Positions 3,414 to 29,578 of a stretch of DNA of 50,670 nucleotides are shown one piece after another. The stretch lies in IMG/VR virus record IMGVR_UViG_3300030620_000009, positions 1-50,670 of that record, one strand, 5' to 3'. Source of the DNA: a virus (lineage: Duplodnaviria; Caudoviricetes). The stretch's first letter is position 1, and the number at the start of each line of letters is the position of its first letter. The position numbers and the translations under genes were made by a program. Below the pieces are notes generated by a model. The model made no database searches and was not told the origin of the DNA. It saw only the letters and a program-made list of their open reading frames with translations.

Positions 3414-3422
3414 CCGCGGGAG

Positions 3423-5747: not shown

Positions 5748-5749
5748 TA

Positions 5750-5857
5750 ATGAAAGTCGAACCTGGGCTGCTTGCCACGTGGGCACTAACCGTAGCCTTC
5801 ATTGTGCTGCTTGTCATGGTGGGAGTCATCATCTATAGCTACCTTCCTCATATGTGA
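5750..5857 (+). CDS. 35-aa single-TM micropeptide
   Basis: MKVEPGLLATWALTVAFIVLLVMVGVIIYSYLPHM; SD GGAGG; abuts primase stop. Confidence 0.55.
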   Translation: MKVEPGLLATWALTVAFIVLLVMVGVIIYSYLPHM

Positions 5858-5984
5858 CCAAACGAAAGCACGGCTTTGGCAGGCTTTCGATGGTCAAAGC
5901 GCGAAAGGGAAGGAGGTGCCTTATGCGGCGCGGGCGTTAGCCCATACCCATGCGCCTGTCTGTAAGTCACTCGAGCGCGACACT

Positions 5985-6021
5985 GGTGGGAGCCTACAGC
6001 AGGATAGGCTCCCACCTTCTT
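5985..6021 (+). terminator. rho-independent terminator
   Basis: 12-bp stem GGTGGGAGCCTA/TAGGCTCCCACC followed by TTCTT. Confidence 0.7.
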
Positions 6022-6048
6022 CACAGACTTGCGCCCCAAATTGCCCTC

Positions 6049-6078
6049 TTGCGTATCCAGATGGGTCTGTGTTATAAT
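6049..6078 (+). promoter_or_regulatory. sigma70-type promoter
   Basis: TTGCGT-18nt-TATAAT (CTGTGTTATAAT). Confidence 0.85.
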
Positions 6079-6161
6079 TAGGACAGTGAAGAGAAGGAAC
6101 TCACAAGAGGACCTTCCGCACGCCGCATAGGCCCGAAGGGGCCGGGAAGGAAGTGAATACG

Positions 6162-6653
6162 ATGGCACGAGGACAGGCAACTGCCGAGGCCCCGGCCGAG
6201 CCGACAACCGAGACTCAGGCCGCAGAACGGCCCGTCAAGGACGTCATTCGCGAGATGTTCGTGGCCGGCAAGTCCCGGAGTGAGATCGCCAAGGCCCTCA
6301 ATGTGTCCTACCAGCGAGTCTTCTCGCTGACCAAGGGGCAGAGCAACGCTGCCACCGCCGAAGGCGGAGCACGGCCGAAGGTCATCCTCGAGGGGCTCGA
6401 GGGCGAGATGGCTCGGTTCAACGGCGTCGCTCGGATCGAGGCGATTCGGACTCTCTTCGGTGAGGGCCACAAGGTCGGCGAAGTCGCCAAGATGGTAGGC
6501 ACGTCCTACCAGATCGTCTTCCAGGCCACACGGAATCTGCGCGAGGCCGCGAAGGCCGGCGAAGAGGCCGAGGGCGAGGAGGTCGAGGAGGGCGAGGCCG
6601 GCGAGGATCTCACCGAGGGCGAGTCGGACGAGGACGAGGACGACGAGTCCTAG
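6162..6653 (+). CDS. tandem double-HTH DNA-binding protein with acidic tail
   Basis: IREMFVAGKSRSEIAKALNVSYQRVF and IRTLFGEGHKVGEVAKMVGTSYQIVF; own promoter; strong GC3 codon bias. Confidence 0.8.
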   Translation: MARGQATAEAPAEPTTETQAAERPVKDVIREMFVAGKSRSEIAKALNVSYQRVFSLTKGQSNAATAEGGARPKVILEGLEGEMARFNGVARIEAIRTLFGEGHKVGEVAKMVGTSYQIVFQATRNLREAAKAGEEAEGEEVEEGEAGEDLTEGESDEDEDDES

Positions 6654-14665: not shown

Positions 14666-15694
14666 TTGGCGACCTACAGAGCAAAGCATCGTAGACAAGC
14701 CGCTGAAGGTACGTGGGCTGCAAAGTACGGCTGCACTGCAGTATCTGCACTCGTAGCAATGGACCAAGCGACCCGCGGTCGAGTCGGACCAGCAATCACT
14801 GCCGATCAGTTCCGTGGTAACCAACCAGACCAAGAGGGTGGAATCGATCTCCACGACGCGCGGATCGCTGCGAACTACTACGGCGTGTCGCTCGAGGTTC
14901 GTGCATCCTACGGTGGCACGACTCCTGCAACCTGGTCAGACTTCACAGCACTTGGACACCCTACAGCCCGCCGCGCCCTCATCGTCCAGGGCGACCATGA
15001 CCGTCTACCTGGAGCCCTCAGGTGTGCTGGGTTCTTGGGTGACCACGCCGTTATGTCGTCCGGTTGGCAGATCGTCGACGGGACTCGGGTCTGGGATATC
15101 AGTAATCCGTTGTGTGCTGGCTGGGTCACATGGCCGGACCACGTTATGAAGGCCTACGTCGAGGCTTTCGCAGGAAGCAATCGTGCATACGTGGCGGCAG
15201 CCCCGCCCACATCGGAGGAGGAAATGCTTGCTGTTGTCCAGGATATCGAAAGGTACCCAAGCCCCCGACACTTCACCGTAAGCAAGGGTACAACACTCAA
15301 CGGATACGACCCTGCCCAGCCTGGCAAAGTCGTCAAGACATTCACTGCCGCCGATGACACTGGTGCAAGGGCAATCGCAGCCGTCGCTATCTCGTGGCCT
15401 GGAACGGTACCAGCTCCAATTCCTCGCGGAGGTCCGTTCCTTCTCGTCGCCGACGGCACGCTCGCGGGCTTATACATCGTCGGTGCCCTCGTCACCCTTA
15501 GCCCCACTGCCCCTCCTGCGACAGGTGACTGCTCCCAGGCTGTTGCAGACGCAGTTGCGCCGCTCAAGGCAGAGATCGAAGACCTGAAAGATCAGGTAAT
15601 GGACGCGGAGCTTGACGCACGTCGCACAGAGTACGACAGGCTCAAGGCAGCCGCCACCGTCTCCATCAAGGTTGAACTCCCTGAGAGGCCATAG
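14666..15694 (+). CDS. probable endolysin with C39-like (papain-fold) cysteine peptidase domain
   Basis: RRQ...GCT...GDHA...SNPL motif order; TTG start with SD GGAGGG; followed by holin-like gene. Confidence 0.65.
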   Translation: MATYRAKHRRQAAEGTWAAKYGCTAVSALVAMDQATRGRVGPAITADQFRGNQPDQEGGIDLHDARIAANYYGVSLEVRASYGGTTPATWSDFTALGHPTARRALIVQGDHDRLPGALRCAGFLGDHAVMSSGWQIVDGTRVWDISNPLCAGWVTWPDHVMKAYVEAFAGSNRAYVAAAPPTSEEEMLAVVQDIERYPSPRHFTVSKGTTLNGYDPAQPGKVVKTFTAADDTGARAIAAVAISWPGTVPAPIPRGGPFLLVADGTLAGLYIVGALVTLSPTAPPATGDCSQAVADAVAPLKAEIEDLKDQVMDAELDARRTEYDRLKAAATVSIKVELPERP

Positions 15695-15699
15695 GAGGA

Positions 15700-15912
15700 A
15701 TGAAGGTGGGTAACTACTCGCTGCGCAACATCTTCACCAAGGAGCCGGTCGCCATCGCAGGCGGACTCAGATCGGTCCTGTTCGTAGCCGTGCTGCTCGG
15801 AGCCGTGCTGCTCGACGAGAAGCAGCTAGCCGGGATCGCGCTCGCGCTCGAGCTCGTACTGGGCCTGTTCGCCCGGCAGTCCTCGACCGGCAACGCGAAC
15901 CTGCCAAAGTGA
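15700..15912 (+). CDS. holin (two TM)
   Basis: KEPVAI...two TMs...ARQS pattern; SD AGGAGG. Confidence 0.7.
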   Translation: MKVGNYSLRNIFTKEPVAIAGGLRSVLFVAVLLGAVLLDEKQLAGIALALELVLGLFARQSSTGNANLPK

Positions 15913-16640
15913 AGGCAGTTGCCCTCCTCTCAGGCGGGCTTGACTCGACAACCCTTGCCTACTATCTCAGGTCCAAGTACGATGCCGAACTAACCTGCCT
16001 GTCCTTCGACTATGGCCAACGCCACAAGAGGGAACTCAGGGCCGCGAAGGAGATCGCCGAAGAGCTCGGGGCTGAACATCACACCGTTGAGCTGCGCGTC
16101 CAAGTCCCACCGCTGGAGCACCTCGTCACCAAAGGTCTCGGCTACATCCTCGGCGGCAGCGCACTTACTGACGAATCAGTCCCCGTTCCCGACGGGCACT
16201 ACGCTGAGGAGTCAATGAAGCAGACGATTGTTCCTAACCGGAACGCGATCATGCTTTCCATTGCCTACGGAGTTGCCGTGGCACGCGGCGCGGAGATGGT
16301 GGCCTTTGCTGCCCACTCTGGTGATCATGCTATCTACCCAGACTGCCGTCCGGAGTTTGTCGAGTATCTGAACTTGGCACTCCGAACTGGGAACACTTGG
16401 GCGACTCCTCAACCTGACCTAGTTGGTCCGTTCCTTCACATGACCAAGAGTGACATTGCCGGGATGGCACGTGACTTAGCAGTTCCAATCGAGAGGACCT
16501 GGTCTTGCTACAAGGGGGAGGAGTATCACTGTGGCGTCTGCGGAACGTGCTACGAAAGGCGGGAGGCCTTCGAAGAAGCGGGAATTGTCGACCCAACTTA
16601 CTACGTCGACAATACCACCCGCTTCGCAGCTCCCTCTTGA
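15909..16640 (+). CDS. queC: 7-cyano-7-deazaguanine synthase
   Basis: LLSGGLDSTT, FDYGQRH, VPNRN, YPDCRPEF, TWSCY...HCGVCGTC. Confidence 0.97.
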   Translation: MKAVALLSGGLDSTTLAYYLRSKYDAELTCLSFDYGQRHKRELRAAKEIAEELGAEHHTVELRVQVPPLEHLVTKGLGYILGGSALTDESVPVPDGHYAEESMKQTIVPNRNAIMLSIAYGVAVARGAEMVAFAAHSGDHAIYPDCRPEFVEYLNLALRTGNTWATPQPDLVGPFLHMTKSDIAGMARDLAVPIERTWSCYKGEEYHCGVCGTCYERREAFEEAGIVDPTYYVDNTTRFAAPS

Positions 16641-16839
16641 GTTTGGAGAGGAGGTCGAGGTAGTTGTCCGATATAGAGGGCAGACGTGGACCGTGAAGGG
16701 CAGCGTCCGCGAGGTCTCCCTGGACCGTGATATTGAGGACATTTCAGGTCCGTACGATGTGTGGTCCGAGTACCGCCCTTCGGGTATTGTTCGATTGGGT
16801 ATTGTTCTGGATCAGAGAAAGGCACTTCTGGAGACATGA
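16531..16839 (+). CDS. hypothetical protein overlapping queC 3' end
   Basis: SD GGAGGAG 7 nt before GTG 16531; ATGA coupling downstream. Confidence 0.5.
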   Translation: MASAERATKGGRPSKKRELSTQLTTSTIPPASQLPLEFGEEVEVVVRYRGQTWTVKGSVREVSLDRDIEDISGPYDVWSEYRPSGIVRLGIVLDQRKALLET

Positions 16840-16976
16840 GCAAGTCCCAGTGGGAGAAGTGTAAGCACAACACCGTCCATAGGATAGAGCAGACCACCAG
16901 ATCTGGTGGGGGCTTCACTGTGTGGAAGTGTTCAACTTGTGGGCTCGAGTTCAAGCCCACCACGAACAAGAACTGA
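16836..16976 (+). CDS. small Zn-ribbon protein
   Basis: CKH...WKCSTCG. Confidence 0.5.
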   Translation: MSKSQWEKCKHNTVHRIEQTTRSGGGFTVWKCSTCGLEFKPTTNKN

Positions 16977-16979
16977 CTC

Positions 16980-17096
16980 ATGAAGTGGGTTCATGCCAAG
17001 GACCCTGAAGATAAGCATCCCGTCGATCCACACTACGCCGCAGATGGTAAGTGGGTGTGTAACACTTGCCGTGAACCGATAAGGGAGGCTAAGTGA
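16980..17096 (+). CDS. 38-aa His/Cys peptide
   Basis: MKWVHAKDPEDKHPVDPHYAADGKWVCNTCREPIREAK; GTGA coupling to next gene. Confidence 0.45.
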   Translation: MKWVHAKDPEDKHPVDPHYAADGKWVCNTCREPIREAK

Positions 17097-17551
17097 ACAG
17101 TCCAGATTGGGGATCGCTAGAATCGATCCAGAAGCAGGCACACGAGATTGCGCAGACACATGGATGGTGGGACACCGCAGACGACTGCAATGTCCCGACT
17201 AAGCTAGCTCTGGCAGCCGGCGAGTTGGTCGGCGAGGCGCTCGAGACCTTCCGGGCCAACAAGATGGAGTTGTACTACCAGTACAAGAACCCGGAGACGG
17301 GTAAACTCCAGAGGATCACGCCGGAGATCCATGCGGAGATGCTTCGGCAGGAGGCGGCGCTTCAGGAAGGTCAGCGGCAGTATAAGCAGGGGGATTTCAA
17401 GCCAGCAGGATTCGGGATCGAACTGGCGGATGCAATCATTCGAATTGGGGACCTTGCTGAGTGGCTCGACATTGACCTTCAGCAGATGGTTCACATCAAG
17501 CAGAACTTCAACAGGACGCGCCCAATGAGACACGGAGGCAAGAAGGTTTGA
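17093..17551 (+). CDS. MazG-like all-alpha NTP pyrophosphatase
   Basis: KLALAAGELVGEALE...IELADAIIRIGDL...NRTRPMRHGGK. Confidence 0.85.
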   Translation: MNSPDWGSLESIQKQAHEIAQTHGWWDTADDCNVPTKLALAAGELVGEALETFRANKMELYYQYKNPETGKLQRITPEIHAEMLRQEAALQEGQRQYKQGDFKPAGFGIELADAIIRIGDLAEWLDIDLQQMVHIKQNFNRTRPMRHGGKKV

Positions 17552-18069
17552 CGTCAATCAGCAAGACGTTCGACTTCCACGCTGCACACCGTCTTCCCAA
17601 CCACGACGGGAAGTGCCGACGCCTCCATGGCCATACCTACCGTGTTGACATTATGATCACGGGTAACATTATCGACACGGAAGGCGACAGTAGCCAGGCA
17701 ATGGTGATCGACTTTGGAGTCCTGAAGGACATCTGGAAGGGGTTCGACGAACACCTTGATCACCACGCCCTCCTCTGGGACAAGGACCCCCTCGTTGATC
17801 TTATCAACGCCGGCGTAGGAAGCTTGGAGGAGTATGGAATTGAGGTTACACCAGTTCCACCTACTGCTGAACACATCGCTGAGATGATCTTCCGAAACCT
17901 GTGGGCGGCACTCGCTGAGCGGCCAGAACCTGTTATCCTGGACGCTGTCCGTGTCTGGGAGACTCCAACCTCGTGGGCGCTATTCGACGGTCGGCACATT
18001 CACATCATTCAGGGCTACGACCCTGGTGCCCCTGAGGGTGACCGAACAGTTATCAGCAAGGTGAACTAA
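17548..18069 (+). CDS. queD: 6-carboxytetrahydropterin synthase
   Basis: FHAAHRL...CRRLHGHTY, DFG, LDH, PTAE, VWETPTSWA. Confidence 0.95.
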   Translation: MTSISKTFDFHAAHRLPNHDGKCRRLHGHTYRVDIMITGNIIDTEGDSSQAMVIDFGVLKDIWKGFDEHLDHHALLWDKDPLVDLINAGVGSLEEYGIEVTPVPPTAEHIAEMIFRNLWAALAERPEPVILDAVRVWETPTSWALFDGRHIHIIQGYDPGAPEGDRTVISKVN

Positions 18070-18839
18070 TGACCACCGATGAGCGTCGATTCGCGGTGGT
18101 GGAGATCTTCGGGCCGACTCTGCAAGGAGAGGGGGCACTAGCGGGAGTGCCTTCACACTTCATCAGGTTTGGTGGATGCGACTTCTCCTGCCACTGGTGT
18201 GACTCCGCACATGCTGTCCTGCCAGAGAACGTACGTCAAGCATCCAAGATGCTGACTGATGAGATCATCATTGCCGTCCTAGAGCTCCGGGATCTGTCGG
18301 CAGATTGGGTGACCCTTTCTGGTGGTAATCCTGCACTGCATGACTTGGGCAAACTCGTGGAGGCGCTACACTCCCTACAGTTCAAGGTGGCAGTCGAGAC
18401 TCAAGGTTCAATGTGGAAGGACTGGCTCTCCTACGTTGATCAGCTTACAGTTAGCCCAAAGCCACCGAGTAGCCGAATGTCCAATGAGTACCTGCCAACC
18501 TTCATGAAGAAGGCTATTGGGGTGGAAGGTAAACACTACACCGATGTACACTCCGAGCGAGCAACCATCTGCTTGAAGGTGCCGGTGTATGATGAGGACG
18601 ACCTCGACTTCGCACTTGGCGTTCATTGGTCGTATCCGGATGTTCCGTTCTACATCAGCATCGTGACCGAAATGGGAGGACTTCGTGGGGACTTCGCCGA
18701 CGGAAGAGTCGACACCGCCGAATCGCTCCTCACCCGCTACCAGCGTGTCGTCCAAGACGTCCTCCGCCGTGGAGTCTCCGACGTCCGAATCCTTCCGCAG
18801 CTCCACTACCTCATCTGGGGGAATCGAACAGGTGTCTGA
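18069..18839 (+). CDS. queE: 7-carboxy-7-deazaguanine synthase (radical SAM)
   Basis: EIFGPTLQGEG, CDFSCHWCD, SGGNP, VETQG, VSPKP, LPQLH. Confidence 0.96.
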   Translation: MTTDERRFAVVEIFGPTLQGEGALAGVPSHFIRFGGCDFSCHWCDSAHAVLPENVRQASKMLTDEIIIAVLELRDLSADWVTLSGGNPALHDLGKLVEALHSLQFKVAVETQGSMWKDWLSYVDQLTVSPKPPSSRMSNEYLPTFMKKAIGVEGKHYTDVHSERATICLKVPVYDEDDLDFALGVHWSYPDVPFYISIVTEMGGLRGDFADGRVDTAESLLTRYQRVVQDVLRRGVSDVRILPQLHYLIWGNRTGV

Positions 18840-19407
18840 CGACGAACCCTTCGACAGCATGGTCAAACACGCAGATAGCATTCTGCAGATTCTGGTTGGC
18901 CCAACGTACAGCAGTGAGCACTTCAAGGACACACCGACAAGGTACGTCAGGATGTTAGCGTCGTTTACGCAGTACACGGAGGCTAACCTTGCTGCCATCC
19001 TCAAGGCAGGATTCGAAGAAACTCAGGACAACATCCTCGTTACCCAACGTCACATCCCCTTTGCAGGTCTTTGTGCACACCACCTACTCCCCTTCTGGGG
19101 AGAGGCCCGACTTGGTTATTTACCCCGGAAGCGGGTCGTCGGACTCTCCAAGTTGGCACGGCTCGTGTTTGCTGCAGGGCGTGTTGCGCCTGGTACCCAG
19201 GAACACATCACCAACCTGATTGCTGACACCCTCTACGACACCCTCGAGCCAATCGGGGTCGGGGTCATAACAACTGCAGCCCATGGCTGTATGGCAGTGC
19301 GAGGTGTAAATGCTCCACAGACTGTAACACAGGTCAATGCGCTTCGTGGCCAAATGCTCCTGAACCCGCAAGCGCGGGCGGAGTTCATGCAAACAGTACA
19401 GGAGTAG
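18832..19407 (+). CDS. folE: GTP cyclohydrolase I
   Basis: DTPTR, LCAHHLLPFWG, GLSKLAR, QE, HGCMAVRGV. Confidence 0.93.
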   Translation: MSDDEPFDSMVKHADSILQILVGPTYSSEHFKDTPTRYVRMLASFTQYTEANLAAILKAGFEETQDNILVTQRHIPFAGLCAHHLLPFWGEARLGYLPRKRVVGLSKLARLVFAAGRVAPGTQEHITNLIADTLYDTLEPIGVGVITTAAHGCMAVRGVNAPQTVTQVNALRGQMLLNPQARAEFMQTVQE

Positions 19408-19411
19408 AACG

Positions 19412-19816
19412 GTGCAGGAGAAGGACGAGACCAGTGGCGAAGACCAGCCTCAGGAAGGACAAGCCAGTTCGACGGAAGAAGCCACAGAAGGAGCGGCCGC
19501 AGGCACTCCGGAAGAGGCAGTCGGCGGAGAGACAGACCAGAAGGATAGTGAAGAGGGAGCGTCGGAAGCTCCTGAAGGAGGAGAGGACACTTCGGGAGAG
19601 GTTGGCGGCCCTGAATCCGAGGCAGAGGAAGCCGAAGGCGAAGGTGGAGACGACAGCGCCGACAGTGGATCCGACGCTGAAGGGGAAGGCGAGAGCGAAG
19701 GCGAAGAAGGAACTCCGGAGCTCTGTGGAGTCGACGGTTGTGTCCGACCACCCCACCCCGCGACGCCGCTCGCGCACTCCTTCGGTCGACAGACCGGCCG
19801 AGACCTCCTCGGGTAG
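19412..19816 (+). CDS. highly acidic protein with C-terminal Cys/His motif
   Basis: SD AGGAG after folE stop; TAG/GTG overlap with next gene; CGVDGC...H...H. Confidence 0.5.
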   Translation: MQEKDETSGEDQPQEGQASSTEEATEGAAAGTPEEAVGGETDQKDSEEGASEAPEGGEDTSGEVGGPESEAEEAEGEGGDDSADSGSDAEGEGESEGEEGTPELCGVDGCVRPPHPATPLAHSFGRQTGRDLLG

Positions 19817-19859
19817 TGTCAGCCAGCGAAAGGTACCTAGCCCTCCTAGAGGAGGCTAG
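19434..19859 (+). CDS. highly basic Arg/Lys-rich protein in overlapping frame
   Basis: open +1 frame with G-ending codons typical of this genome; purine-rich SD-like sequence. Confidence 0.35.
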   Translation: MAKTSLRKDKPVRRKKPQKERPQALRKRQSAERQTRRIVKRERRKLLKEERTLRERLAALNPRQRKPKAKVETTAPTVDPTLKGKARAKAKKELRSSVESTVVSDHPTPRRRSRTPSVDRPAETSSGSVSQRKVPSPPRGG

Positions 19860-20223
19860 TGACCTTCATACCCGCAAGAATCGTGGGTATGCCGGGGATA
19901 GCCCTGACCCCTGGATCAACTTCCGGGGGTCAGAGCGTCTTGGCATTCCGGCATCTGTAGGTTGCGTCATAAGGCTCCAAGACAAAGTTGCACGTGTCGA
20001 GAACCTCATCCGCAATCCAAACAACGATCAGGTCAATGAGTCCATTCGGGACACACTAATGGACCTGGCAGCCTACAGCTACATTGCCATCTGCTTGTTG
20101 GAGGAGGAATGGGCAAGAGAGGAATCAACGTTCCCGAAGACCTCTCCTGCGTCGGACAATACTACCACGACTCAACCGTTGAGGAGTACTACGCCAGTGC
20201 TGCAGATCGGGACGCCAGAGTGA
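19816..20223 (+). CDS. DUF1599/nucleotide-modification-associated domain 1 (all-alpha NTP-PPase-like)
   Basis: KNRGYA...DPWINF...RLQDKVAR...ESIRDTLMDLAAY. Confidence 0.8.
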   Translation: MSASERYLALLEEASDLHTRKNRGYAGDSPDPWINFRGSERLGIPASVGCVIRLQDKVARVENLIRNPNNDQVNESIRDTLMDLAAYSYIAICLLEEEWAREESTFPKTSPASDNTTTTQPLRSTTPVLQIGTPE

Positions 20224-20340
20224 GTCAGCTGCAGTCGCTGGGGCGCTTCCCGGTGCGGTACTTCACAAGCAGCAACGTGCGTTTGGGGTTGACTAGTGTG
20301 TGGGGTCTCCGTTGGACTGAGCCGCGAGGGGAGGACTTGG

Positions 20341-21132
20341 ATGCAATTCGCGCCGGTAGCTAACCTGGCCGGCTACGATCGCCTTGAGGAGTTGGGTCTG
20401 CTTGGAAGTTACCATCTGCTTATTGCGACCGAGGTGGTCAAGGACGTTAGCGCATGGGAGAACTTCTGGTTGGTCCGCGGACCAGTAGATGGAGACCCCG
20501 AGCGCTTCGTTATCATGGACAATGGGCTGATCGAGACAGGCGTTCCAACTGACCCGCAGACACTGAAGGAGGCGGCAGATGCTGTAGAGGCTACCTGCAT
20601 TGTCCTTCCGGATGTTCTGCGGGACTACCACAAGACCCTGAAGGTTGTGTCGGCAGCACTGCCAGAGCTGCAGCGAACGGGATATCCGCTGATGGGGGTG
20701 GTGCAAGGGCGTACATGGGAGGAAGTTGACTACATTGTCGACTTCTACCAGCGGGTTGGAGTTCAGTTTCTTTCAATCCCACGTGTGATGGTAGAAATCT
20801 TCGGATCACGTGTTCCGCTGGTTCACCGCTTCCGACACCGTGGAATGCCGATCCACCTGTTGGGGTTCAGCGAGAACATGTGGGACGATGTCGTCTCTGC
20901 GACCATGTCAGGTGTAATAGGGCTTGACAGTGCGGTTCCCTTGTGGTACCACACATCACTTCCCGAGAGGCCACCTCTGAATGCCGACTTCGGTCGTCGC
21001 CCAAGAGACTACTGGACGACCCCAGGAGATGCGTTCAACTACGACAATGTGGGGAAAGTACGACAGTGGCTGATAGATGCACTGGATGCCCGTACACAGG
21101 AGGAGCGGCAGGGACACGTGGTGACCCCTTAG
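20341..21132 (+). CDS. divergent TGT-fold deazaguanine transglycosylase (DpdA-like)
   Basis: IMDNG, VLPDVL, MGVVQG, LSIP, IHLLG, LDSAVP in TGT motif order; within preQ0 cluster. Confidence 0.75.
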   Translation: MQFAPVANLAGYDRLEELGLLGSYHLLIATEVVKDVSAWENFWLVRGPVDGDPERFVIMDNGLIETGVPTDPQTLKEAADAVEATCIVLPDVLRDYHKTLKVVSAALPELQRTGYPLMGVVQGRTWEEVDYIVDFYQRVGVQFLSIPRVMVEIFGSRVPLVHRFRHRGMPIHLLGFSENMWDDVVSATMSGVIGLDSAVPLWYHTSLPERPPLNADFGRRPRDYWTTPGDAFNYDNVGKVRQWLIDALDARTQEERQGHVVTP

Positions 21133-23450
21133 CTCCGGTCTGTGTCGTTGGAGAAGCACCTGGGGCGGAAGAGCTGCGCACTGGAGTTCCATTCGTCGGG
21201 CAGTCTGGGCGGCTACTCTCAAGAGCACTGATGAAGGTTGGTATCGATGAGGGTCAAGTCTACTTCACGAACGCACTCCGCTGTAGACCTCCAATCGGAC
21301 AAGCCCCGCCGAGGGAGGCGATTGAAGCGTGTCGTTCCCGTCTACTCAGTGAGGTGGGCAGTACACAACGCCGAGTTGTTATCGCCCTTGGCAACTCAGC
21401 AGTGCGCTCGCTACTCAATAACCATTCGCTCAAGATCACGGCGGAGCGTGGTAAGGCTTTCCCGTCCGAACGGGGCGTGGTCGTTGCAGCTCTCCACCCC
21501 GCAGCAGTTCTTCGAGCTTTCGGAGAGTATCCTCGCTTCCTTGCCGACCTTCGTTACGCAGCTGGCTTCCTTGACGGCCAGCAGATCAAGTCTCCTGGAA
21601 CAACCCGCTGGGACCTCGTCACCCCCTTCAACATTCACCGTGTCGTAGACGTCCTCCTCAAGCAGCCCCACCTTGGTGCTGACGTCGAGACCGGCGGGTT
21701 CAATCCAAGATCTGACCTGCTTCTGGTCCTCTCGGTTGCATGGACCACAAACAGGGTTGCTGTCTTTCCAATGCATCACCCACTTGATCGAGAGCGCAAC
21801 CTCCTCGAGCCTTACCACCCACTCGGGCACTCATTCTGGAAGCTCATAAGATACTTCCTTGAGGCCCAGGGACCGCGGTGGATCTGGCACAATGGTAAGT
21901 TCGACACTGCGTTCTTCCACACCTTAGGCATCGACGCTCGGGTCGACGAAGACTGCATGTTGATGCATTATACCCTCAACGAACAGCGCGGCACACACGA
22001 CCTCGCGCAGCTGGGTGGAGATTATCTTGGGGCTCCCAACTGGAAGGATGCAATGGCTCAGGAGGCCATCGCGAAGGGGTACATCAAGAGCAAGCAGGAA
22101 TCATTCGCAAAGATTCCACCATCGATCCTGTACCCCTACAACGCCCGTGACGCAGATGTCACACTACAGCTGTTCCACGAACTGAAGAAGGTGATCACCA
22201 AGCGGCGGAACCTCGGTCTGCCGAAGTTGTATGAGCACCTCCTGATCCCATCTTCCAAGTTCCTCCAGGAAGTAGAGCACACTGGAATGTGGGTGTCGAC
22301 TGAGTACTTAGATCAGGCAGATGAGGTCTACCAGGCACGCGCTGAAGCCGAGCGGTACGACATCCTGAAGGTTGTTGAACCGTTGTGGGACCCACAAGTT
22401 TACGCCAAGACAACGGGTGCTGTCAAGGTCCCTCTGGTGTTCAATCCCGGTAGCCCCAAGCAGAAGCTGTACATCCTCCGTGACGTACTAGGACATCGCA
22501 TTGTCAACACACGTGCAGCGACCCTCGAGGCACTTCCGAAGAACGATCTCGTTGACGCCCTCATGAAGTGGATGAAGACCAACAAGGTAATCACCACCTA
22601 CATCCGTGGAGTTCAGGAGCGCATCGATGAGGATGGGCGAGTTCACGCTACGTATCTTATCCACGGAACTACGACGGGGCGTCTCTCTTCGCGGAACCCC
22701 AATATGCAGAACGTCCCTCGCGACCCGTACGTCAGGAATATCTTCCAAGCTCCTGAAGGTCGGATCCTTGTGGAGCTTGACTACAGTCAAGTGGAACTCC
22801 GGGTTCTTGCAGTCTTCTCGGACGACGCATTCCTGAAGAGTGTTTACCGGGAAGGCCGTGACCTCCACGACGAGGTGTCCACTGCACTCTTCGGTCCCAA
22901 TTTCAGCTCTGAACAAAGAATCAGAGCTAAGTTCCTGAACTTCGGAATCGCTTACGGACGCGGCCCAAAGTCAATTCACGAAGAGTTCGGAATGCCTATT
23001 GAAGAGGCATCAAAGATGATTCGTGATTGGTTCAGAAGGGCACCTCAAGCCGCTTCTTACATCGACGAATGTCGTCGAGCTCCTATAGAAGGGCGTCAGC
23101 TGAAGACTCCCTTTGGACGTAGAAGGCGTTTCACCTTGGTGACGCGGAACAACCTGGTCCCCATCCAGAATGAAGCCGTCAACTTTGCCATTCAAAGCAC
23201 TGCCTCAGATTTGACCCTTTTGAGTGCAATAAGGATGCGAGATCGCTTGGTCAATAAGTGGGAGGCTCACGTAACGAATCTCGTTCATGACTCAATTCTG
23301 GTGGAGGCTCCTGAGGATGGGGACTTGGATGGAATGATCGCTTACGCCAAGGAGGTCATGCAGCAGTTGCCGACCACCATTCTACATACCGACGTCCCCT
23401 TTGAGGTGGACGCTAAGGTGGGGAAGAAATGGGGAGACTTCAAGGGATGA
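21066..23450 (+). CDS. family-4 uracil-DNA glycosylase domain fused to family A DNA polymerase
   Basis: UDG: CTGC, GEAPG, PFVG, TNALRCRPP, LHPA; Exo: DVET, HNGKFD, YNARD; Pol: DYSQVELR, RAKFLNFGIAYG, VHDSI. Confidence 0.93.
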   Translation: MADRCTGCPYTGGAAGTRGDPLAPVCVVGEAPGAEELRTGVPFVGQSGRLLSRALMKVGIDEGQVYFTNALRCRPPIGQAPPREAIEACRSRLLSEVGSTQRRVVIALGNSAVRSLLNNHSLKITAERGKAFPSERGVVVAALHPAAVLRAFGEYPRFLADLRYAAGFLDGQQIKSPGTTRWDLVTPFNIHRVVDVLLKQPHLGADVETGGFNPRSDLLLVLSVAWTTNRVAVFPMHHPLDRERNLLEPYHPLGHSFWKLIRYFLEAQGPRWIWHNGKFDTAFFHTLGIDARVDEDCMLMHYTLNEQRGTHDLAQLGGDYLGAPNWKDAMAQEAIAKGYIKSKQESFAKIPPSILYPYNARDADVTLQLFHELKKVITKRRNLGLPKLYEHLLIPSSKFLQEVEHTGMWVSTEYLDQADEVYQARAEAERYDILKVVEPLWDPQVYAKTTGAVKVPLVFNPGSPKQKLYILRDVLGHRIVNTRAATLEALPKNDLVDALMKWMKTNKVITTYIRGVQERIDEDGRVHATYLIHGTTTGRLSSRNPNMQNVPRDPYVRNIFQAPEGRILVELDYSQVELRVLAVFSDDAFLKSVYREGRDLHDEVSTALFGPNFSSEQRIRAKFLNFGIAYGRGPKSIHEEFGMPIEEASKMIRDWFRRAPQAASYIDECRRAPIEGRQLKTPFGRRRRFTLVTRNNLVPIQNEAVNFAIQSTASDLTLLSAIRMRDRLVNKWEAHVTNLVHDSILVEAPEDGDLDGMIAYAKEVMQQLPTTILHTDVPFEVDAKVGKKWGDFKG

Positions 23451-23725
23451 CGGGAGATCGAGCAGTACGACGCCTCAAGTCGCGGCCAATCGGGGCGTAC
23501 AAAGCCCCCAAGACCAGGTACCTCTGCCGACTGTGCAGCTACCACTGCGACTCCCTGAGTGCGGGCTTTGCACACTCCCAACTCCTTCATGGCCCCTGGC
23601 CAGCCGCCGAAGGAGGATCAGCCGGAGCGGCGTACGCACTCAAGCTCTCCGCGCAGGCGCGAGCGAATGGGGTAGCACACCCACGTGGCGGCAAAGTTCA
23701 CTTGCCACAGTGGCGAAGTAATTAG
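23447..23725 (+). CDS. small protein with C2H2-type zinc finger
   Basis: YLCRLCSYHCDSLSAGFAHSQLLH; ATGA coupling to polymerase. Confidence 0.55.
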   Translation: MTGDRAVRRLKSRPIGAYKAPKTRYLCRLCSYHCDSLSAGFAHSQLLHGPWPAAEGGSAGAAYALKLSAQARANGVAHPRGGKVHLPQWRSN

Positions 23726-24444
23726 TCTGTTCGGACGGTCAGTGACACGACTAGGTCGGATGTCGATGTGTAGGTAGGTGTACCACGAGCTACCAGGACT
23801 CCGAAGAGTGAAGTACCGGGCAGCACGTAAGGATGGTCAAGTACCTTCGTCGCAACTGAGTTGTCACTGAAGTCTGCGTAGTCTGTTGCTTCGATCGGAA
23901 CAACACCTACACAATCCGCAAGCTCGGCATCGGTCGGATCGAAGATGAGGTTGTCCGTGGGTGCAGCAGGTGCAGCAGCGAAGAGAACCAGGTCGAGAGC
24001 TGCTATCTGCTGACCCTTATCGACGATCGTGACTGACTCCAGCAAGCCGGTTAGGATGCCGGTCCGCGCAACGCCTGCAAAGGTAAGGAGGGCTCCGACT
24101 GCGTCCTTGGCGGTGTAAGCTACTCCGCTGGAGATCGTAGGGGTTTGCGCAACTCGAACACGACGCCTCTGTGTGTCTACAAACAGGCGACCTTCAGCAT
24201 CGACGATGAGGGGTCGAGCCGTATCTGTTCCTGTTCGATCAACACCACCCGCTACAACAATCCCATCGGAGGCAACGAATTCATCGGCGTCCTGATGTGT
24301 AGCTGCACCTTGCCAACCGGCATCCTGATCAAGACCGACATCCTTGATGCCGATCATCAACTTCACACGAGCAATTCCATCGTCGGCGTATCCGGTATCC
24401 GTAGACTGCAGGTCGGTGTTCTTGATGGATGCTGGTCCTGCCAT
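23722..24444 (-). CDS. probable virion/tail-associated protein
   Basis: last gene of structural arm; SD GGAGAGG; beta-rich. Confidence 0.6.
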   Translation of the reverse strand: MAGPASIKNTDLQSTDTGYADDGIARVKLMIGIKDVGLDQDAGWQGAATHQDADEFVASDGIVVAGGVDRTGTDTARPLIVDAEGRLFVDTQRRRVRVAQTPTISSGVAYTAKDAVGALLTFAGVARTGILTGLLESVTIVDKGQQIAALDLVLFAAAPAAPTDNLIFDPTDAELADCVGVVPIEATDYADFSDNSVATKVLDHPYVLPGTSLFGVLVARGTPTYTSTSDLVVSLTVRTD

Positions 24445-24453
24445 TTCCCTCTC

Positions 24454-27400
24454 CTACGTTACTAGCCACGGACTTGATACGGCAAACAGGATCTTCTGGG
24501 GTGAAGTTACACCAAAGACCTGTTCTCCGAACTCTTCGGCGTATGTCTGGAGGTCTGCTACGTCCCAGCCATGCCAGGTTGTACATAGAGGATCACCAAC
24601 GATGATGCGGCCGCTTACCTGAGACGGTAAGAGAATGATTGCATGGTTGTCCTCGAAGTTTGCCTGGCACTTTACGTAGGTTGGTAGCTCTCCATAGTCT
24701 CCTTGGAGGATGACTGCCCTTCCTTCACCTAGAGCACTAAGAACTTGCGCCCAAGTCTGCCCGCTACGAACACCGAGAACCTGATTCCAGTGCCGCCATG
24801 CCTGTCGAACATTGTCCAGGCTTGTACCTGGACTACCGCTTGCACCGCCAATGTCGGCCTCACTCTTTCCGCACCACGGTATAAGTTCACCGCCCCAGAC
24901 TTGTGTAGCTCCACGTGTCTGCCAATCGAGAGCCATCGCGCCCGCTTCAAGGGTGCAGATGAAGGCGTCTAAGGTTGTTGTTGGATCACCAATCTGACGG
25001 CGGAAGATCGGCAGGTAATGCGGAGTGAAGGGTAGGAACCCCCCGCATGCAGCGCAGGTACCAGGAGGAGGAGCGGTATCGATTCTCTTGCGTCCTGTTA
25101 GCCTGTTTACAAGCCAGAAGATTCCGTGTGGCTCATTGTGGCTTGGATCCTCTACCTCAGTCTCCTGGTTGAACTGGGCCTGAATCTGCTGTGTGAGTTC
25201 TGGAAACTGAGCAGACGTGATATTGAATGTAAGTTGCAGCTTCTCGTCCGGACCAGGAAGCATAGCGGCTACGTCATCATAGAAGGGGTAAGTATCAGGA
25301 GGCCCGAAGGTGGTGTTCGGGTCATTGTCGTTCGAACTGTGACTTACCAGAACGGTACCAACATAATCTGGGCCGCTAGGCTGGTTTGGTTCCCAATTGC
25401 CTTGCTCCAGTTGGTAACTGCTTTCCTCATCGCCAACGTCACCAGACAGCATGGATGAGCCCTTGACCCGAACAGAGAGGACCTCAATAACGTCGGGGTC
25501 AAGCTCTTCAGGTTGGGCATACGTCAGGAATGTACGACGACGAATGCCTCCGGGTGGGTTAGGAAGTCCATTGAAGCCATTGACGTGTTCATCATGCGGA
25601 ACATCCGTATATGCAGTCCCGTGGGTCCACTCATACTCCTCAGTTATGAAGTTCCATGAGACGGCCCAGATGTCTGACGGGTTGTTGATTGTATCCTGAA
25701 CCTCAACCTGCTCTGTCTCATTCTCCAAAGTCGACTCACCGCAGAGATCGAGTGGTGGGTCTCCTTGTGAGATCGTGATGCTCTGGAAGCGAACCTCAGC
25801 TGCTACGCTGCCAGCTGTCAGCTGAATGAATGTGTCCGTTAGATTACCGTCACCGTCAGCCTGCTCGTCCCATGAAGATGGTTCAGTTCCCTGCCACAGT
25901 CGGACAAAGGTTCGCTGCAAGGTTCCGCCGAAGGGTCCAGCTCCAGGAGTTTCCTCATACCGAAACCTTACGCCAAATGCCTGGTTCCAGTCAATTCCGC
26001 TAACAGGAACAATTATACCGGAGAAGTCGTACTCATCGTCTGTAGGTCTAATCTCTACGTAGGGCCCTGAGTGGTCAATCAGAAGGGTCGCATCCGTAAA
26101 GCTACCCACGAATCTAACTGAGTAGGCAACTTCGTAGGGAACCCCTAGTGGCTCAAAGCCTTCTAGGACATCGCAAGCAGCAGTCGTGAACTTTGCGTCA
26201 GCTGCTGATAGACGTCCTTCGCCGGTGAGGACTTCGACCACCGACGACAAACCGGCGGGATCATCTGTATTGTGCGACCAAGAGGGTGGAGTACCGGGAG
26301 TTGAGGGTTCACCCCAATCTCCTACTGAATCATCCTCGAAGTCTTCCCATGTACAAGTGGATTCACCACCGCATCCCAACTCCTCAAGGGTGTTAGGATC
26401 TGCTGGAGCGACCTTGAAGTCATCGAACTGCCAAAGAATGACCTCGTCTTCGTCATTCTCGCTTGTAACAGCGAAGTAAGTTGTAAGGGTGAAGTCACCC
26501 ATTGGATCGAACCACGTTCCATCGTCAGCTTCAAGACTCCAACCAGGCTTTACTTCGCCGTCCCTCCATACACGAACAGCCTTGCGGGCATTCGATCCGT
26601 TCTTTGCAACGAGCAGTTCAACAGTATGCCATGCACCTGTCACCCAGTCAGTCTTCTCGAACTGGCCGTTGTCGTGATCTACGAAACCTGCCCAGGAGGG
26701 AGGTTCGGTACTGACATCCATCTGTAGATCGGTCGTGTAAGCGCCTGTACCGATAGACCAATCTACCCTGGTGGTATCAAAGGCTCCGTAGGCCCGTGTA
26801 AACCGGAACCGGAAAGAGTAAATGCATGAGTCAAGCCAAACCGAGTTGGCGTCCCCGGGTATCGCAAGCTCTTCGATATGGGTGACCAGGATGTCGCCGT
26901 CATTGAATTGAGCCCAGCCAACACCTGCATTCACGATCGCCAAGATGGAAGCGTGACTACTCTCATTGTACTCAACACCACACGACGCTGTATCCCATCC
27001 GGTCGTATTACGATCGTTGAAGTCGTCGATAATAAACAAACTACCGGCCTGACCGAGCTCATTGCAGCAATCGCATGAGGGAACAGGATCAGGAGTCGGT
27101 GGGTCATCACGTGGGCCAAAGACGTGAACAGCCTTCGACCGACCCTTGTAATGTGAACGTTGGAAGAACGGCCCACGCAGCTCGGAGTCGTGAAGGGTTG
27201 GACTACGCTCATCGACGTAGATGGCGTGCCCACGGCCTCTATATCTGGCCCCCTCAGCTGATAATGGGCCAGTGGGGACAACTGAGGTGAGTTGATTGTC
27301 TACATGGATGATTCGTTCGCCGTGGTAACCAGGCTTCGAGAAGCCAGTAGCAGGTGTTCCTACGAGAGCCGAGATACCTCTAGCTGTCGGGGCAATTCCT

Positions 27401-29370
27401 AACGCAGCCAAAGCGTAGCGTGCGGCTACAATTTCGCCTGCACCAACGGCAGTTGGGCCAAATGCGAAACCTGCCAGTCCAGAGCCAGCACGACTTGGAC
27501 TTCCTCGAACTGCAGTAGGCAGGGCAGCAAGGCCAGCAAGGTCTGCGCCGACCTTGGAGGCGATGCCTGGAGCTGTTGGCAGGCTAACAAGTTTACTGGT
27601 GCCCTCGAAGTCTGATGGGAGTTGCCCAACAGAGGTCGGCTCGAAGGCTACGCCGCCGAGGGCAGATCCTTCCTTGGCAGCAGAACCGGGTGAAGATGCA
27701 CCAGAGATGAGGCCAGCAAGAGAGCTACCCGTAGCTGACTCCGGAGCAGCTGCAGCATATACAGATGCCCCTGCGTGGGTAACTCGTACCTCGCCGCTCG
27801 CAGTATCAATAATGTAGCCTACCGCCAAATCGAGGCTAGAAGCAGACCACTGATCTTGCGTTGAAGGATCCTGTAGATATGCTCGCTGTCTCTTCGGGTA
27901 CCCACTGATGAGGTTCGCTGAGGATTGTGTATGCAGATAGGTGGTGTTCGCCTTGGTCCGCAGGCGGCCTGTGTGATTAGCTAGTTGCCTCAGTGCAAGC
28001 TCGGGTACTACCCCGTAAATTGGATCTTCGAGCCCTGCATCCACTGCTGAGCGCAATTGGGCAGTATAGAAGGCACCGACTGTACTTGATGCAACGTATG
28101 TAGTGTCTCCATCTGTGTCTGGATCATCAACGTCAGTGTACGCCCCTGTGAAGTTGCTGTTCTCAGCTTCATCTACAGGAGGAAGCCAGAATACAACTCC
28201 TTGCTCAGGAAGCGCATACAATGCCAGCACAGCATCGTCAATAATGATCTCCGCTGGCTCATGTGTGGCTCCAAACCTAAAGATGCCAGGACCGGTGGTA
28301 GCAAGGGTCGCAGTCGTCGTAGAGGCTACAGGCGTTCCGTCAATAACTAGGCTTATCTTCGCTGCACCTGCGTCATCTAAATCCTCACCGATAATGACAA
28401 GGTCATACCACTGATTCGGTGTAGGTTGCCATTCGGAGCCAACGAGGTTTGTTTCCCCATAGGTCAACTGATATCCGGTTTCAGTACCACGCAAGGCAAT
28501 GCGGCTAAGGAGTACCTCTACGATATTGTGGTAGAATGGAGCCATTGTCGTGCCGTACGCAACGTGCTTGAAACGCATTCTGGCGTAGACAGAGTTCGGG
28601 GTTTGGGGATTGTTGTTGGCTCCATCGAAGCGGACACCACGCTGCGACCCCCACTCCGCATCAACCAGATTCGTCTGGTTTACAGGAGTTATCTTGATCC
28701 AAAGGGCTTTGAGTCCGGGGGTATAAGAGCGATCGGAGTCTCGTGTGATAAGGGGGCTTGTCTCACGTGGACTCTCTCCACCGACCATAGTCACGATCTG
28801 CGGGACTACAACGAAGGTCTCGGTGAACCGAATCCATGAGTCGCCAGATGCAGAAGCTGTCTTCCCAGCATACGTCATTGACGCAGTGTGGCCAGAGGCC
28901 ATATCACCGCCAGCATCATTGATGAAGACTCGGATGCGGAGACGATCACCACGTTTGACCGCGGTCGAGGTTGGACTAGCAGTCCAGTTACGGGCTGCCA
29001 AAGAGGTTCCTAGCTCAGTGCCGTGCTCGGAGTTGATGATCGTTGACTTGACGGCGTAGTTCGCGTCACATAGCTCAACGATCACCTGCATGCCAGCATT
29101 GGCCTGCATGGCACTTTCTTCGGCCCACAGGTTGAAGGTGATGTCTCCGGAGATGGTGATGGCATCGAGCGGCGGGCTATACCACTCCAGAACGTTACCA
29201 GCACCCGACACTCGGCACTGGACGCCGCTAGTGGGCCCGGTAACCGTATTAGTCGTGGAAGTCGCTACTCCGCTCCCTCGACGTGTGTTGGCGAGGAGCG
29301 AGGTAGTACTCGCAGTATCTATATCGAAGCGAGACAGTTGAGACTGATTGAGGAAGAGATCAGTCGCCAT
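24454..29370 (-). CDS. large multidomain tail/receptor-binding protein with C-terminal C39-like peptidase
   Basis: 1638 aa downstream of tape measure; beta-sandwich-like domains, about 6 Gly/Ala 20-aa repeats, C-terminal RRQ..CT..HA..DPLC. Confidence 0.75.
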   Translation of the reverse strand: MATDLFLNQSQLSRFDIDTASTTSLLANTRRGSGVATSTTNTVTGPTSGVQCRVSGAGNVLEWYSPPLDAITISGDITFNLWAEESAMQANAGMQVIVELCDANYAVKSTIINSEHGTELGTSLAARNWTASPTSTAVKRGDRLRIRVFINDAGGDMASGHTASMTYAGKTASASGDSWIRFTETFVVVPQIVTMVGGESPRETSPLITRDSDRSYTPGLKALWIKITPVNQTNLVDAEWGSQRGVRFDGANNNPQTPNSVYARMRFKHVAYGTTMAPFYHNIVEVLLSRIALRGTETGYQLTYGETNLVGSEWQPTPNQWYDLVIIGEDLDDAGAAKISLVIDGTPVASTTTATLATTGPGIFRFGATHEPAEIIIDDAVLALYALPEQGVVFWLPPVDEAENSNFTGAYTDVDDPDTDGDTTYVASSTVGAFYTAQLRSAVDAGLEDPIYGVVPELALRQLANHTGRLRTKANTTYLHTQSSANLISGYPKRQRAYLQDPSTQDQWSASSLDLAVGYIIDTASGEVRVTHAGASVYAAAAPESATGSSLAGLISGASSPGSAAKEGSALGGVAFEPTSVGQLPSDFEGTSKLVSLPTAPGIASKVGADLAGLAALPTAVRGSPSRAGSGLAGFAFGPTAVGAGEIVAARYALAALGIAPTARGISALVGTPATGFSKPGYHGERIIHVDNQLTSVVPTGPLSAEGARYRGRGHAIYVDERSPTLHDSELRGPFFQRSHYKGRSKAVHVFGPRDDPPTPDPVPSCDCCNELGQAGSLFIIDDFNDRNTTGWDTASCGVEYNESSHASILAIVNAGVGWAQFNDGDILVTHIEELAIPGDANSVWLDSCIYSFRFRFTRAYGAFDTTRVDWSIGTGAYTTDLQMDVSTEPPSWAGFVDHDNGQFEKTDWVTGAWHTVELLVAKNGSNARKAVRVWRDGEVKPGWSLEADDGTWFDPMGDFTLTTYFAVTSENDEDEVILWQFDDFKVAPADPNTLEELGCGGESTCTWEDFEDDSVGDWGEPSTPGTPPSWSHNTDDPAGLSSVVEVLTGEGRLSAADAKFTTAACDVLEGFEPLGVPYEVAYSVRFVGSFTDATLLIDHSGPYVEIRPTDDEYDFSGIIVPVSGIDWNQAFGVRFRYEETPGAGPFGGTLQRTFVRLWQGTEPSSWDEQADGDGNLTDTFIQLTAGSVAAEVRFQSITISQGDPPLDLCGESTLENETEQVEVQDTINNPSDIWAVSWNFITEEYEWTHGTAYTDVPHDEHVNGFNGLPNPPGGIRRRTFLTYAQPEELDPDVIEVLSVRVKGSSMLSGDVGDEESSYQLEQGNWEPNQPSGPDYVGTVLVSHSSNDNDPNTTFGPPDTYPFYDDVAAMLPGPDEKLQLTFNITSAQFPELTQQIQAQFNQETEVEDPSHNEPHGIFWLVNRLTGRKRIDTAPPPGTCAACGGFLPFTPHYLPIFRRQIGDPTTTLDAFICTLEAGAMALDWQTRGATQVWGGELIPWCGKSEADIGGASGSPGTSLDNVRQAWRHWNQVLGVRSGQTWAQVLSALGEGRAVILQGDYGELPTYVKCQANFEDNHAIILLPSQVSGRIIVGDPLCTTWHGWDVADLQTYAEEFGEQVFGVTSPQKILFAVSSPWLVT

Positions 29371-29578
29371 GGCGATGCCACGGGCGAGGGGAGCGTCGCT
29401 CTGCGTTTAGGTCATGCCACGGCCAACCGTCGAGCCAGAAGATGACGCGCTTCCACCACGGAGTCTGAAGAGTATCGAAGCGCTGATCGTGGTCCGACAG
29501 GCGCTGCTCAAGAACACTAATACGTGCCTCGAAGGACTCGGTGATCACACGAGCCTCTTCCGAGAGGTACTGCATCAC
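29360..29578 (-). CDS. small coiled-coil protein
   Basis: coupled ORF; EARISVLEQRL, PWWKR. Confidence 0.5.
   Translation of the reverse strand: MMQYLSEEARVITESFEARISVLEQRLSDHDQRFDTLQTPWWKRVIFWLDGWPWHDLNAERRSPRPWHRHGD

Follow-up and report, generated by a model that had tools for sequence, protein, structure and literature searches.

Papain-family cysteine peptidases have been described in the endolysins of several phages. The mycobacteriophage Lysin A domain N5 was defined by Payne and Hatfull through HHpred, with a C39-like peptidase of Bacillus anthracis and the staphopains as relatives (PMC3314691); in Gordonia phages proteins are annotated as 'lysin A, protease C39 domain' (PMC12821328), and Peptidase_C39_2 appears in a standard list of endolysin domains (PMC5017753). 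The use of one peptidase type in two phage proteins is described for the staphylococcal phages DW2 (LysDW2 and THDW2) and K (LysK and gp56), whose endolysins and tail hydrolases alike contain a CHAP domain (PMC4124061). Here we analyze two related cysteine peptidase domains encoded by a single linear IMG/VR virus record, IMGVR_UViG_3300030620_000009 (50,670 b, 57% GC), which is referred to in its full length as the window. One domain forms the N-terminal part of an endolysin, the other the C-terminal end of a 1638-residue tail protein.

We consider it likely that a clan-CA peptidase acts in this phage both in a murein endolysin, for exit, and in a tail-tip wall hydrolase, for entry, and that the host is of the Gram-positive type. 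The features that carry this proposal are the following (aa, amino acids; nt, nucleotides; ORF, open reading frame).

14666 to 15694, plus strand: endolysin gene, 342 aa (P0003); an ORF with AGGAGG 5 nt before the TTG at 14666
14675 to 15205, plus strand: N-terminal papain-fold cysteine peptidase domain of the endolysin (aa ~4-180), from an AlphaFold2 model, Foldseek and conservation
15212 to 15514, plus strand: C-terminal all-beta domain of the endolysin (aa ~183-283), putatively cell-wall-binding, from domain sharing and an AlphaFold2 model
15700 to 15912, plus strand: 70-aa ORF with two hydrophobic helices, holin candidate, 6 nt past the lysin stop and preceded by AGGAGGA
24454 to 29370, minus strand: 1638-aa tail protein (P0002), second gene downstream of the tape measure gene
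24469 to 25017, minus strand: C-terminal papain-fold cysteine peptidase domain of P0002 (aa 1452-1634), from alignment, conservation and profiles

Homology, fold and active site of the two domains

A BLASTP comparison of the lysin (P0001, residues 21-185) with the tail protein (P0002, residues 1452-1614) gave 49 identities over 175 positions (28%, E 2e-9). A preliminary description of the window, made from the letters alone, had aligned the two domains motif by motif, and every pair that it listed was found again in pairwise and multiple alignments. For lysin and tail protein, respectively, these are RRQ/RRQ, GCT/ICT, AMDQATRG/ALDWQTRG, LEVR/LGVR, TW/TW, RALIVQGD..LP/RAVILQGD..LP, LRC/VKC, DHA/NHA, SNPLC/GDPLC and YVEAF/YAEEF. 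When the whole record was searched in six frames with P0003, the sole second match was at 24526-25002 on the minus strand (E 7.9e-8). As a control, profiles were built from one architecture only and scored on the other. A hidden Markov model (HMM) of 49 tail-type domains, from which P0002 was omitted, gave 64.5 bits with the window lysin P0003, and an HMM of 85 lysin-type domains gave 198.1 bits with P0002, after removal of the window lysin and its four closest kin (P0003, P0004, P0005, P0011, P0012). The top score among 400 shuffled control sequences was 4.5-5.5 bits. Because one-architecture profiles reach such scores while shuffled sequences do not exceed 5.5 bits, the N-terminal domain of the lysin and the C-terminal domain of the tail protein are homologous beyond chance.

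An AlphaFold2 model of the lysin N-terminal domain, calculated from a four-sequence alignment (A1), had a mean pLDDT of 77.4 and a pTM of 0.80. Cys23 lies on a helix formed by residues 17-36 and His127 on a strand formed by residues 126-137, which is the arrangement of Cys-helix and His-sheet of the papain fold. A Foldseek search of the PDB returned 13 matches at E<=0.001 with a staphopain first; all were staphopains, the phytochelatin-synthase-like Alr0975, or an entry named 'P210 CD lyase'. Weaker matches included the C39 domain of PCAT1 (E 2.5e-3), a 'putative C39-like peptidase' of B. anthracis (3erv, E 3.0e-3, TMq 0.52) and cathepsins. The search of BFVD gave 12 matches at E<=0.001, among them the endolysin of Gordonia phage OneUp, two mycobacteriophage Lysin A proteins, cyanophage 'lysozymes' and large proteins labeled 'morphogenesis protein 1 ... 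hydrolase'; next, at E 2.1e-3, came a 'tail tape measure' protein. Since these matches include both lysins and virion proteins, the models indicate that a papain fold of this kind is already present in both.

The catalytic candidates are Gln11, Cys23, His127 and Asn147 in the lysin, and Gln1459, Cys1472, His1576 and Asp1593 in the tail protein. A profile of 100 short relatives (A2) matched cathepsin B-like proteases in the PDB (E 1.2e-4), and in this alignment the Gln, Cys, His and Asp of the family fall on the oxyanion Gln, the nucleophilic Cys, the His and the Asn of those enzymes. Conservation is close to complete: of the 100 short relatives, 95 have the Gln, 97 the Cys and all 100 the His, with Asp (89) or Asn (11) at the fourth position, and among 49 long relatives the counts are 48 for Gln and 49 each for Cys, His and Asp. 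The fourth residue of the window lysin is Asn, as in papain. The papain/C39-like fold and the Q-C-H-(D/N) order proposed in the preliminary description are therefore borne out by the model, the Foldseek matches and the cathepsin B-like alignment. It had also pointed to two further conserved cysteines, C120/C150 in the lysin and C1568/C1596 in the tail domain. Both are present in 118 of 149 aligned sequences, neither in 26 and only one in 5, a count that is inflated by shared ancestry. The two cysteines appear to behave as a pair, which lends indirect support to a disulfide.

Sequence-based annotation recovers little of this. Neither the lysin nor P0002 matched any Pfam family at E<=1, CHAP and NLPC_P60 included, or any PHROG; one of the 100 relatives matched a PHROG, of the 'amidase' family. 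Phmmer searches of the PDB with the window proteins gave a chance match only and no Pei protein sequence. With the A3 profile, a search of the PDB yielded sub-threshold M23 matches only, which were traced to one M23-bearing member of the alignment and set aside, and a search for related loci gave one IMG/VR locus. Neighbors in the ESM Atlas belong to Peptidase_C39_2 clusters, some of which carry PG_binding domains or GH25.

A profile search of 1.84 billion representative sequences retrieved 398 proteins at E<=0.001, of which 160 reached E<=1e-10 and 53 E<=1e-30, so that the family comprises about 400 metagenomic clusters (at 50% identity). By tblastn, P0001, P0002 and two further window proteins of 626 and 687 aa matched none of 50,697 phage records, and we regard the family as a new, metagenome-only sequence family. 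Architectures were compared for the 150 of the 398 proteins whose matches were listed and the window's two, 152 in all, with a full domain match in 151. Ninety of these 151 carry the domain N-terminally in proteins of ~260-340 aa, 50 carry it at the extreme C-terminus of proteins of 486-2454 aa, and 11 have other layouts. A FastTree phylogeny of the 151 domains requires only 2 changes of the short/long label over 140 labeled rows; with 'other' as a third group there were 8 and 5 changes, against shuffled means of 47.6 and 42.1. The window lysin falls inside a well-supported clade of 14 lysin-type sequences, in a tree that is unrooted and whose support values are local only, and the window tail domain falls among tail-type sequences. 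Because each copy belongs to its own clade, the tree suggests that they are old paralogues from two old clades and not a recent copy within the genome. The preliminary description had spoken of one domain for both exit and entry. This holds in that a homologous domain is found in both proteins, but not in the sense of a recent duplication in this phage.

Endolysin, tail protein and genome layout

The lysin could also start at an upstream TTG (14615), which would give a protein of 359 aa; the TTG at 14666 is the start of the database protein P0003. Its second domain was traced by a search with lysin residues 180-290, which found 11 other proteins and, with P0006 added, 12 that share a C-terminal domain of ~95 aa with 12 invariant columns. 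The Pfam domain in front of it is Peptidase_M23 in three proteins (P0007, P0159, P0162), Glyco_hydro_25 in three (P0161, P0163, P0165) and Amidase_2 in one (P0167), and none is recognized in the remaining five. Because the C-terminal domain is shuffled behind M23, GH25 and Amidase_2 domains, the 342-aa protein is best read as a modular endolysin, with a putative catalytic and a putative wall-binding module; past the latter it ends in a ~55-aa tail rich in Ala and charged residues. The AlphaFold2 model of the binding domain is all-beta (pLDDT 81.4, pTM 0.68). Its weak structural matches (E 0.14-1.4) are a Listeria autolysin, the lysin Ly7917, the SH3b domains of ALE-1 and lysostaphin, staphylococcal autolysin repeats and binding domains of phage endolysins, which is suggestive only of an SH3b-like wall-binding domain.

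The N-terminal domains of P0006, P0166 and P0168 have no Pfam match, and their pattern Cys...GH...DPLAP resembles the C...H...GDPLC of the peptidase family; they may be a further removed branch of this peptidase, joined to the same binding domain. In P0160 and P0164 the N-terminal domain is a different one, common to the two, with His-rich motifs and without a Pfam assignment.

The 70-aa ORF that follows the lysin has no Pfam match. This two-helix membrane protein is a candidate for the holin that would release the endolysin. Around the lysin gene, predicted promoters and terminators were no more frequent than in shuffled sequence.

The tail protein lies in the following context.

31455 to 35153, minus strand: tape measure protein, 1232 aa, from Pfam TMP_3 (E 1.2e-28) and tblastn matches to annotated tape measures
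29575 to 31455, minus strand: tail protein of 626 aa that lies between tape measure and P0002, assigned by position; a sub-threshold Invasin_D3 match only
23722 to 24444, minus strand: 240-aa gene directly downstream of P0002, a conserved neighbor with no Pfam match

We consider P0002 a tail protein because its gene comes second after that of the tape measure and because the same order (tape measure, a 641-aa protein, an 843-aa peptidase-ended protein) is found in contig L005. The 626-aa protein had no phage or PDB match, and the N-terminal 1450 aa of P0002 had none in Pfam, PHROG, the PDB or phages. Gly/Ala-rich repeats occur around aa 540-680 of P0002. Its N-terminal module of ~170 aa (in the region 27300-29300, minus strand) is found twice in the L013 homologue (3186-6452), of which aa 46-211 and 242-425 both match window 28786-29292. 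In most of the other family members the first ~680 aa of P0002 are missing, and the sequence starts at a repeated 'Y.G.S.AIHV' motif.

Tail-type copies were found in six distinct outside contigs (L005, L010, L012, L013, L014 and L015; L011 was excluded as it is the 14,895-b contig L005). Two of the six, L010 and L013, also encode a lysin-type copy, which brings the genomes that hold both to three with the window; the other four contigs end 0.4-1.8 kb past the tail gene. The metagenome-assembled genome (MAG) contig L003 (76,653 b) has the lysin type only. Both L010 and L013 carry a homologue of the 240-aa gene after the tail gene (48-52% identity over ~80 aa), and in each the lysin-type gene is found on the strand of the tail-type gene, 2.2 kb downstream of it; the ORF that comes after the lysin has two (L010) or three (L013) transmembrane (TM) helices. 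The lysins of these two contigs are 35-40% identical to the window tail domain, closer than the window's own divergent lysin. Tail gene and lysin are separated in L010 and L013 by three or four genes for which the window has no counterpart; the lysis cassette of the window appears to have been relocated. The names 'endolysin' and 'tail protein' used in the preliminary description thus agree with the sharing of the binding domain on the one hand and with the tape measure context, the L005 synteny and the L010/L013 arrangement on the other.

The window represents a siphovirus-type phage genome that is close to complete. Its morphogenesis module occupies the minus strand between 50480 and 23722, with a small-terminase-like gene, large terminase, portal, cement protein and Phage_capsid_4 capsid at the head end, and tail completion, tail tube, the 1232-aa tape measure and the 626-aa, 1638-aa (P0002) and 240-aa proteins at the tail end. 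Head-module matches lie at 42504-43685, 45397-47223 and 47225-47763, all on the minus strand. In both the window and the archaeal Methanoculleus virus Blf4, terminase and portal are separated by two small ORFs, which in the window encode 2-TM proteins, and the head module seems to be common to bacterial and archaeal viruses. Between head and tail genes a 687-aa ORF (38988-41051, minus strand) had no match in Pfam, among PDB sequences or in the phage records (tblastn); it may have a lytic or a decoration role.

The plus strand encodes, before the lysin, a DUF3854 primase-like protein, an SNF2 helicase, a PD-(D/E)XK nuclease, AAA_24 and DUF669 and, after it, the genes below, of which those from 15909 to 20223 form a cluster for 7-deazaguanine (preQ0-type) synthesis.

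15909 to 16640, plus strand: QueC
17548 to 18069, plus strand: PTPS/QueD
18069 to 18839, plus strand: radical-SAM QueE-like gene
18685 to 19407, plus strand: GTP cyclohydrolase I
19738 to 20223, plus strand: DUF1599 'nucleotide modification associated' ORF
20943 to 23450, plus strand: 835-aa fusion of a uracil-DNA glycosylase (UDG)-superfamily domain (aa 60-194), a 3'-5' exonuclease and a family A DNA polymerase (PolA)

The presence of the 7-deazaguanine cluster suggests that the phage DNA is modified; a DpdA/TGT-like transglycosylase was not recognized, and Pfam gave no match for a 152-aa ORF (17093-17551) and a 278-aa ORF (20296-21132). The best phage matches of the UDG-PolA fusion are from Brevundimonas and Bacillus-group phages.

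Wall substrate, host and alternative explanations

A mechanism for the two peptidases can be proposed on this basis. The N-terminal domain of the endolysin would cut by means of Cys23, His127 and Asn147, with Gln11 serving the oxyanion, and would be anchored to the wall by the ~95-aa beta-rich C-terminal domain after release by the 70-aa two-helix membrane protein acting as holin. The 1638-aa protein would be a tail-tip protein whose last ~185 aa, a paralogous peptidase with an intact Gln-Cys-His-Asp set, would be carried in the virion as a wall hydrolase and locally cut peptide stems or cross-bridges of the peptidoglycan at infection. As expected of a tail lysin, P0002 is encoded downstream of the tape measure within the tail module; its wall-degrading domain is assigned by homology only.

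Searches for another muralytic domain in the record, covering 52 ORFs in Pfam and Amidase_2 and GH25 in six frames (with positive control genomes), found none, and a lipobox scan gave no credible lipoprotein spanin, its four matches all lying inside other genes. The preliminary description was therefore right in recognizing no glycosidase, amidase or spanin. It had gone on to suggest that an envelope breached by peptidase alone would belong to a monoderm with an atypical wall or an S-layer, with Chloroflexota as a guess for the host. This step is not supported, as the binding domain also occurs in GH25, Amidase_2 and M23 enzymes, all of which act on murein, and no evidence was obtained for Chloroflexota. 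Peptidase-only lysins are common and ordinary. Because the same binding domain serves muramidase, MurNAc-L-Ala amidase and M23 families, the target lineage would have ordinary murein, and domain sharing argues for this as the substrate. Peptidase_C39_2 and GH25 catalytic domains are reported to be exclusive to phages of Gram-positive bacteria (PMC8223927), and the host is probably a bacterium of the Gram-positive type. The record has no tRNA genes. A scan of genome contigs for the domain found one locus, L003 (66.8% GC), in a MAG labeled 'uncultured Thermotogae bacterium'; the domain occurs in 1 of 151 genomes sampled from the phylum of that MAG, and L003 is probably a mis-binned viral or prophage contig.

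Three other explanations have to be considered. The peptidase could cut an envelope that consists of protein or is atypical in some other way (an S-layer or a pseudomurein-like wall), the host being a monoderm with an unusual wall, such as a member of the Chloroflexota or a methanogenic archaeon. The lack of a recognized glycosidase or amidase in the record fits this, as do the Foldseek match to the pseudomurein endoisopeptidase PeiR and the head genes, since among the 50,697 phage records Blf4 is closest to the major capsid protein (41.3%) and to the portal (39.5%). However, the runners-up to Blf4 for both proteins are actinobacteriophages, the large terminase is 52% identical to that of Streptomyces phage TurkishDelight and 50% to that of Actinoplanes phage phiAsp2, and the replication module (PolA, SNF2, AAA_24, DUF669, PD-(D/E)XK) is of bacterial-phage type, with bacterial phages as the best PolA matches. 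Blf4 itself lacks the domain at E<=1. Above all, the lysin binding domain is common to GH25, Amidase_2 and M23 lysins, which need murein; lysins with a peptidase only are common, and not one datum points to Chloroflexota, so that we find an atypical envelope improbable. The idea of an archaeal virus, raised by the Blf4 capsid and portal, was set aside as the main reading on the same set of observations: Blf4 without the domain, a terminase and PolA of bacterial-phage type, and a binding domain that occurs with murein hydrolases.

The two proteins could also differ in function. C39 peptidases canonically process leader peptides, cutting behind Gly-Gly, and auto-cleavage occurs in some tail-tip proteins. 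The tail copy could accordingly be a self-processing or maturation protease, for which the Gly/Ala-rich repeats at aa 540-680 of P0002 might be taken to speak, or a catalytically idle adhesion module, with the lysin copy alone attacking the wall. Against this stand the retention of Q-C-H-D in 48-49 of 49 tail-type domains, a paralogue that is fused to a wall-binding domain, the occurrence of the same fold in virion-associated hydrolases in BFVD, and the 35-40% identity of the L010 and L013 lysins to the window tail domain, which implies that the two roles use near-interchangeable sequences. We regard a processing or idle tail copy as unlikely. Conversely, the 342-aa protein could be an accessory wall-active protein, the true endolysin being encoded in the ~9% of the genome that is missing or by one of the ORFs without assignment, among them those of 687, 450 and 278 aa; the location of the gene between DUF669 and QueC would be in line with this. 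Yet the protein combines a predicted catalytic with a predicted binding module, its gene is directly followed by a small TM ORF whose ribosome-binding site is strong, its homologues in L010 and L013 occupy canonical lysis-cassette positions, and neither the 52 ORFs nor the six-frame searches revealed another muralytic domain. This is, to our judgment, the least probable of the three.

We thus favor a murein endolysin and a tail-tip wall hydrolase that share one peptidase family, while several observations weigh against this proposal. Peptidase_C39_2 (PF13529) is matched at E<=0.001 by only 9 of the 100 short and 2 of the 49 long relatives, so that 138 of 149 fail the model, and the window copies had no match to it (P0001 and P0002 at E<=1, six-frame translation at E<=10, 7 control genomes being positive). 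The structural model and its matches support a papain/C39-like peptidase at the level of fold and clan (CA), outside formal PF13529 membership. A sequence link to N5 was sought with Bxz2 gp11, which, like Gordonia phage RedRaider gp55, is an example of the domain annotated in actinobacteriophages as 'lysin A, protease C39 domain': the A2 profile matched nothing in the whole Bxz2 record at E<=10, and hhalign against gp11 gave a probability of 0.5%. The PeiR match (E 3.4e-3, TMq 0.56, rmsd 4.3) ranks among the better structural ones, and the binding domain found no PDB structure by Foldseek at E<=0.001, its best E being 0.14. To these are added the non-canonical position of the lysin gene, surrounded by genes of replication and DNA modification, between DUF669 and QueC on the strand opposite to the structural genes, the CheckV completeness estimate of 91%, several large ORFs without assignable function, that of 687 aa among them, and the archaeal affinity of capsid and portal.

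A more far-reaching version of the proposal would be that the distinct clan-CA family and the uncatalogued SH3b-like domain make up the whole wall equipment for exit and entry, acting through peptide-bond cleavage alone and possibly on a type of cross-link new as a lysin target, in a siphovirus lineage with Blf4-like head genes. We hold this to be doubtful, if worth considering.

Comparison with known systems

What is new here is a large uncatalogued C39-like family with a companion binding domain; the use of one cysteine peptidase type in endolysin and tail hydrolase was already established, and concepts of phage entry or lysis are unchanged. A search of the literature on C39-type domains in tail proteins, which did not cover supplementary files, found no description of a lysin/tail pairing. 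The family adds a sizeable metagenome-only branch to the papain-fold (C39-like) lysin domains, together with a candidate wall-binding domain. Current Pfam and PHROG annotation recognizes neither, so that phages of this kind seem to be free of an endolysin. The finding also supplies candidate peptidase-only enzymes for Gram-positive-type walls and shows how, in nature, a single catalytic family is kept in two stable architectures, as lysin and at the tail tip, of the same genome, on three independent contigs.

Compared with the PeiW, PeiP and PeiR proteins of methanogen viruses, the window peptidase is alike in being a clan-CA-like cysteine peptidase by which a virus would open the wall of its host. 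The similarity is at the level of the fold only (PeiR, E 3.4e-3), and the window differs in a binding domain common to murein hydrolases and in replication genes of bacterial-phage type. With PF13529, of clan Peptidase_CA, the window domains have the fold and the order of residues in common, whereas they fail its model.

The likeness to N5 is that of an N-terminal papain-family cysteine protease in an endolysin with the same structural neighbors, staphopain and 3erv, as the window model (PMC3314691). A distant relationship of the window domain to N5 is likely on these structural grounds. The actinophage proteins, as described in PMC12821328, usually have a glycosidase or amidase partner domain or gene, in contrast to the window, where none was found.

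The arrangement follows the logic of exit and entry that is known from the staphylococcal CHAP enzymes. These belong to another family, are also accompanied by amidase or Lyz_2 domains, and their activity has been shown experimentally, whereas that of the window proteins is predicted. The parallel lies in a single type of cysteine-histidine peptidase that is placed N-terminally in the endolysin and is found again in the tail hydrolase, which in gp56 of phage K carries just one CHAP domain, at the C-terminus (PMC4124061).

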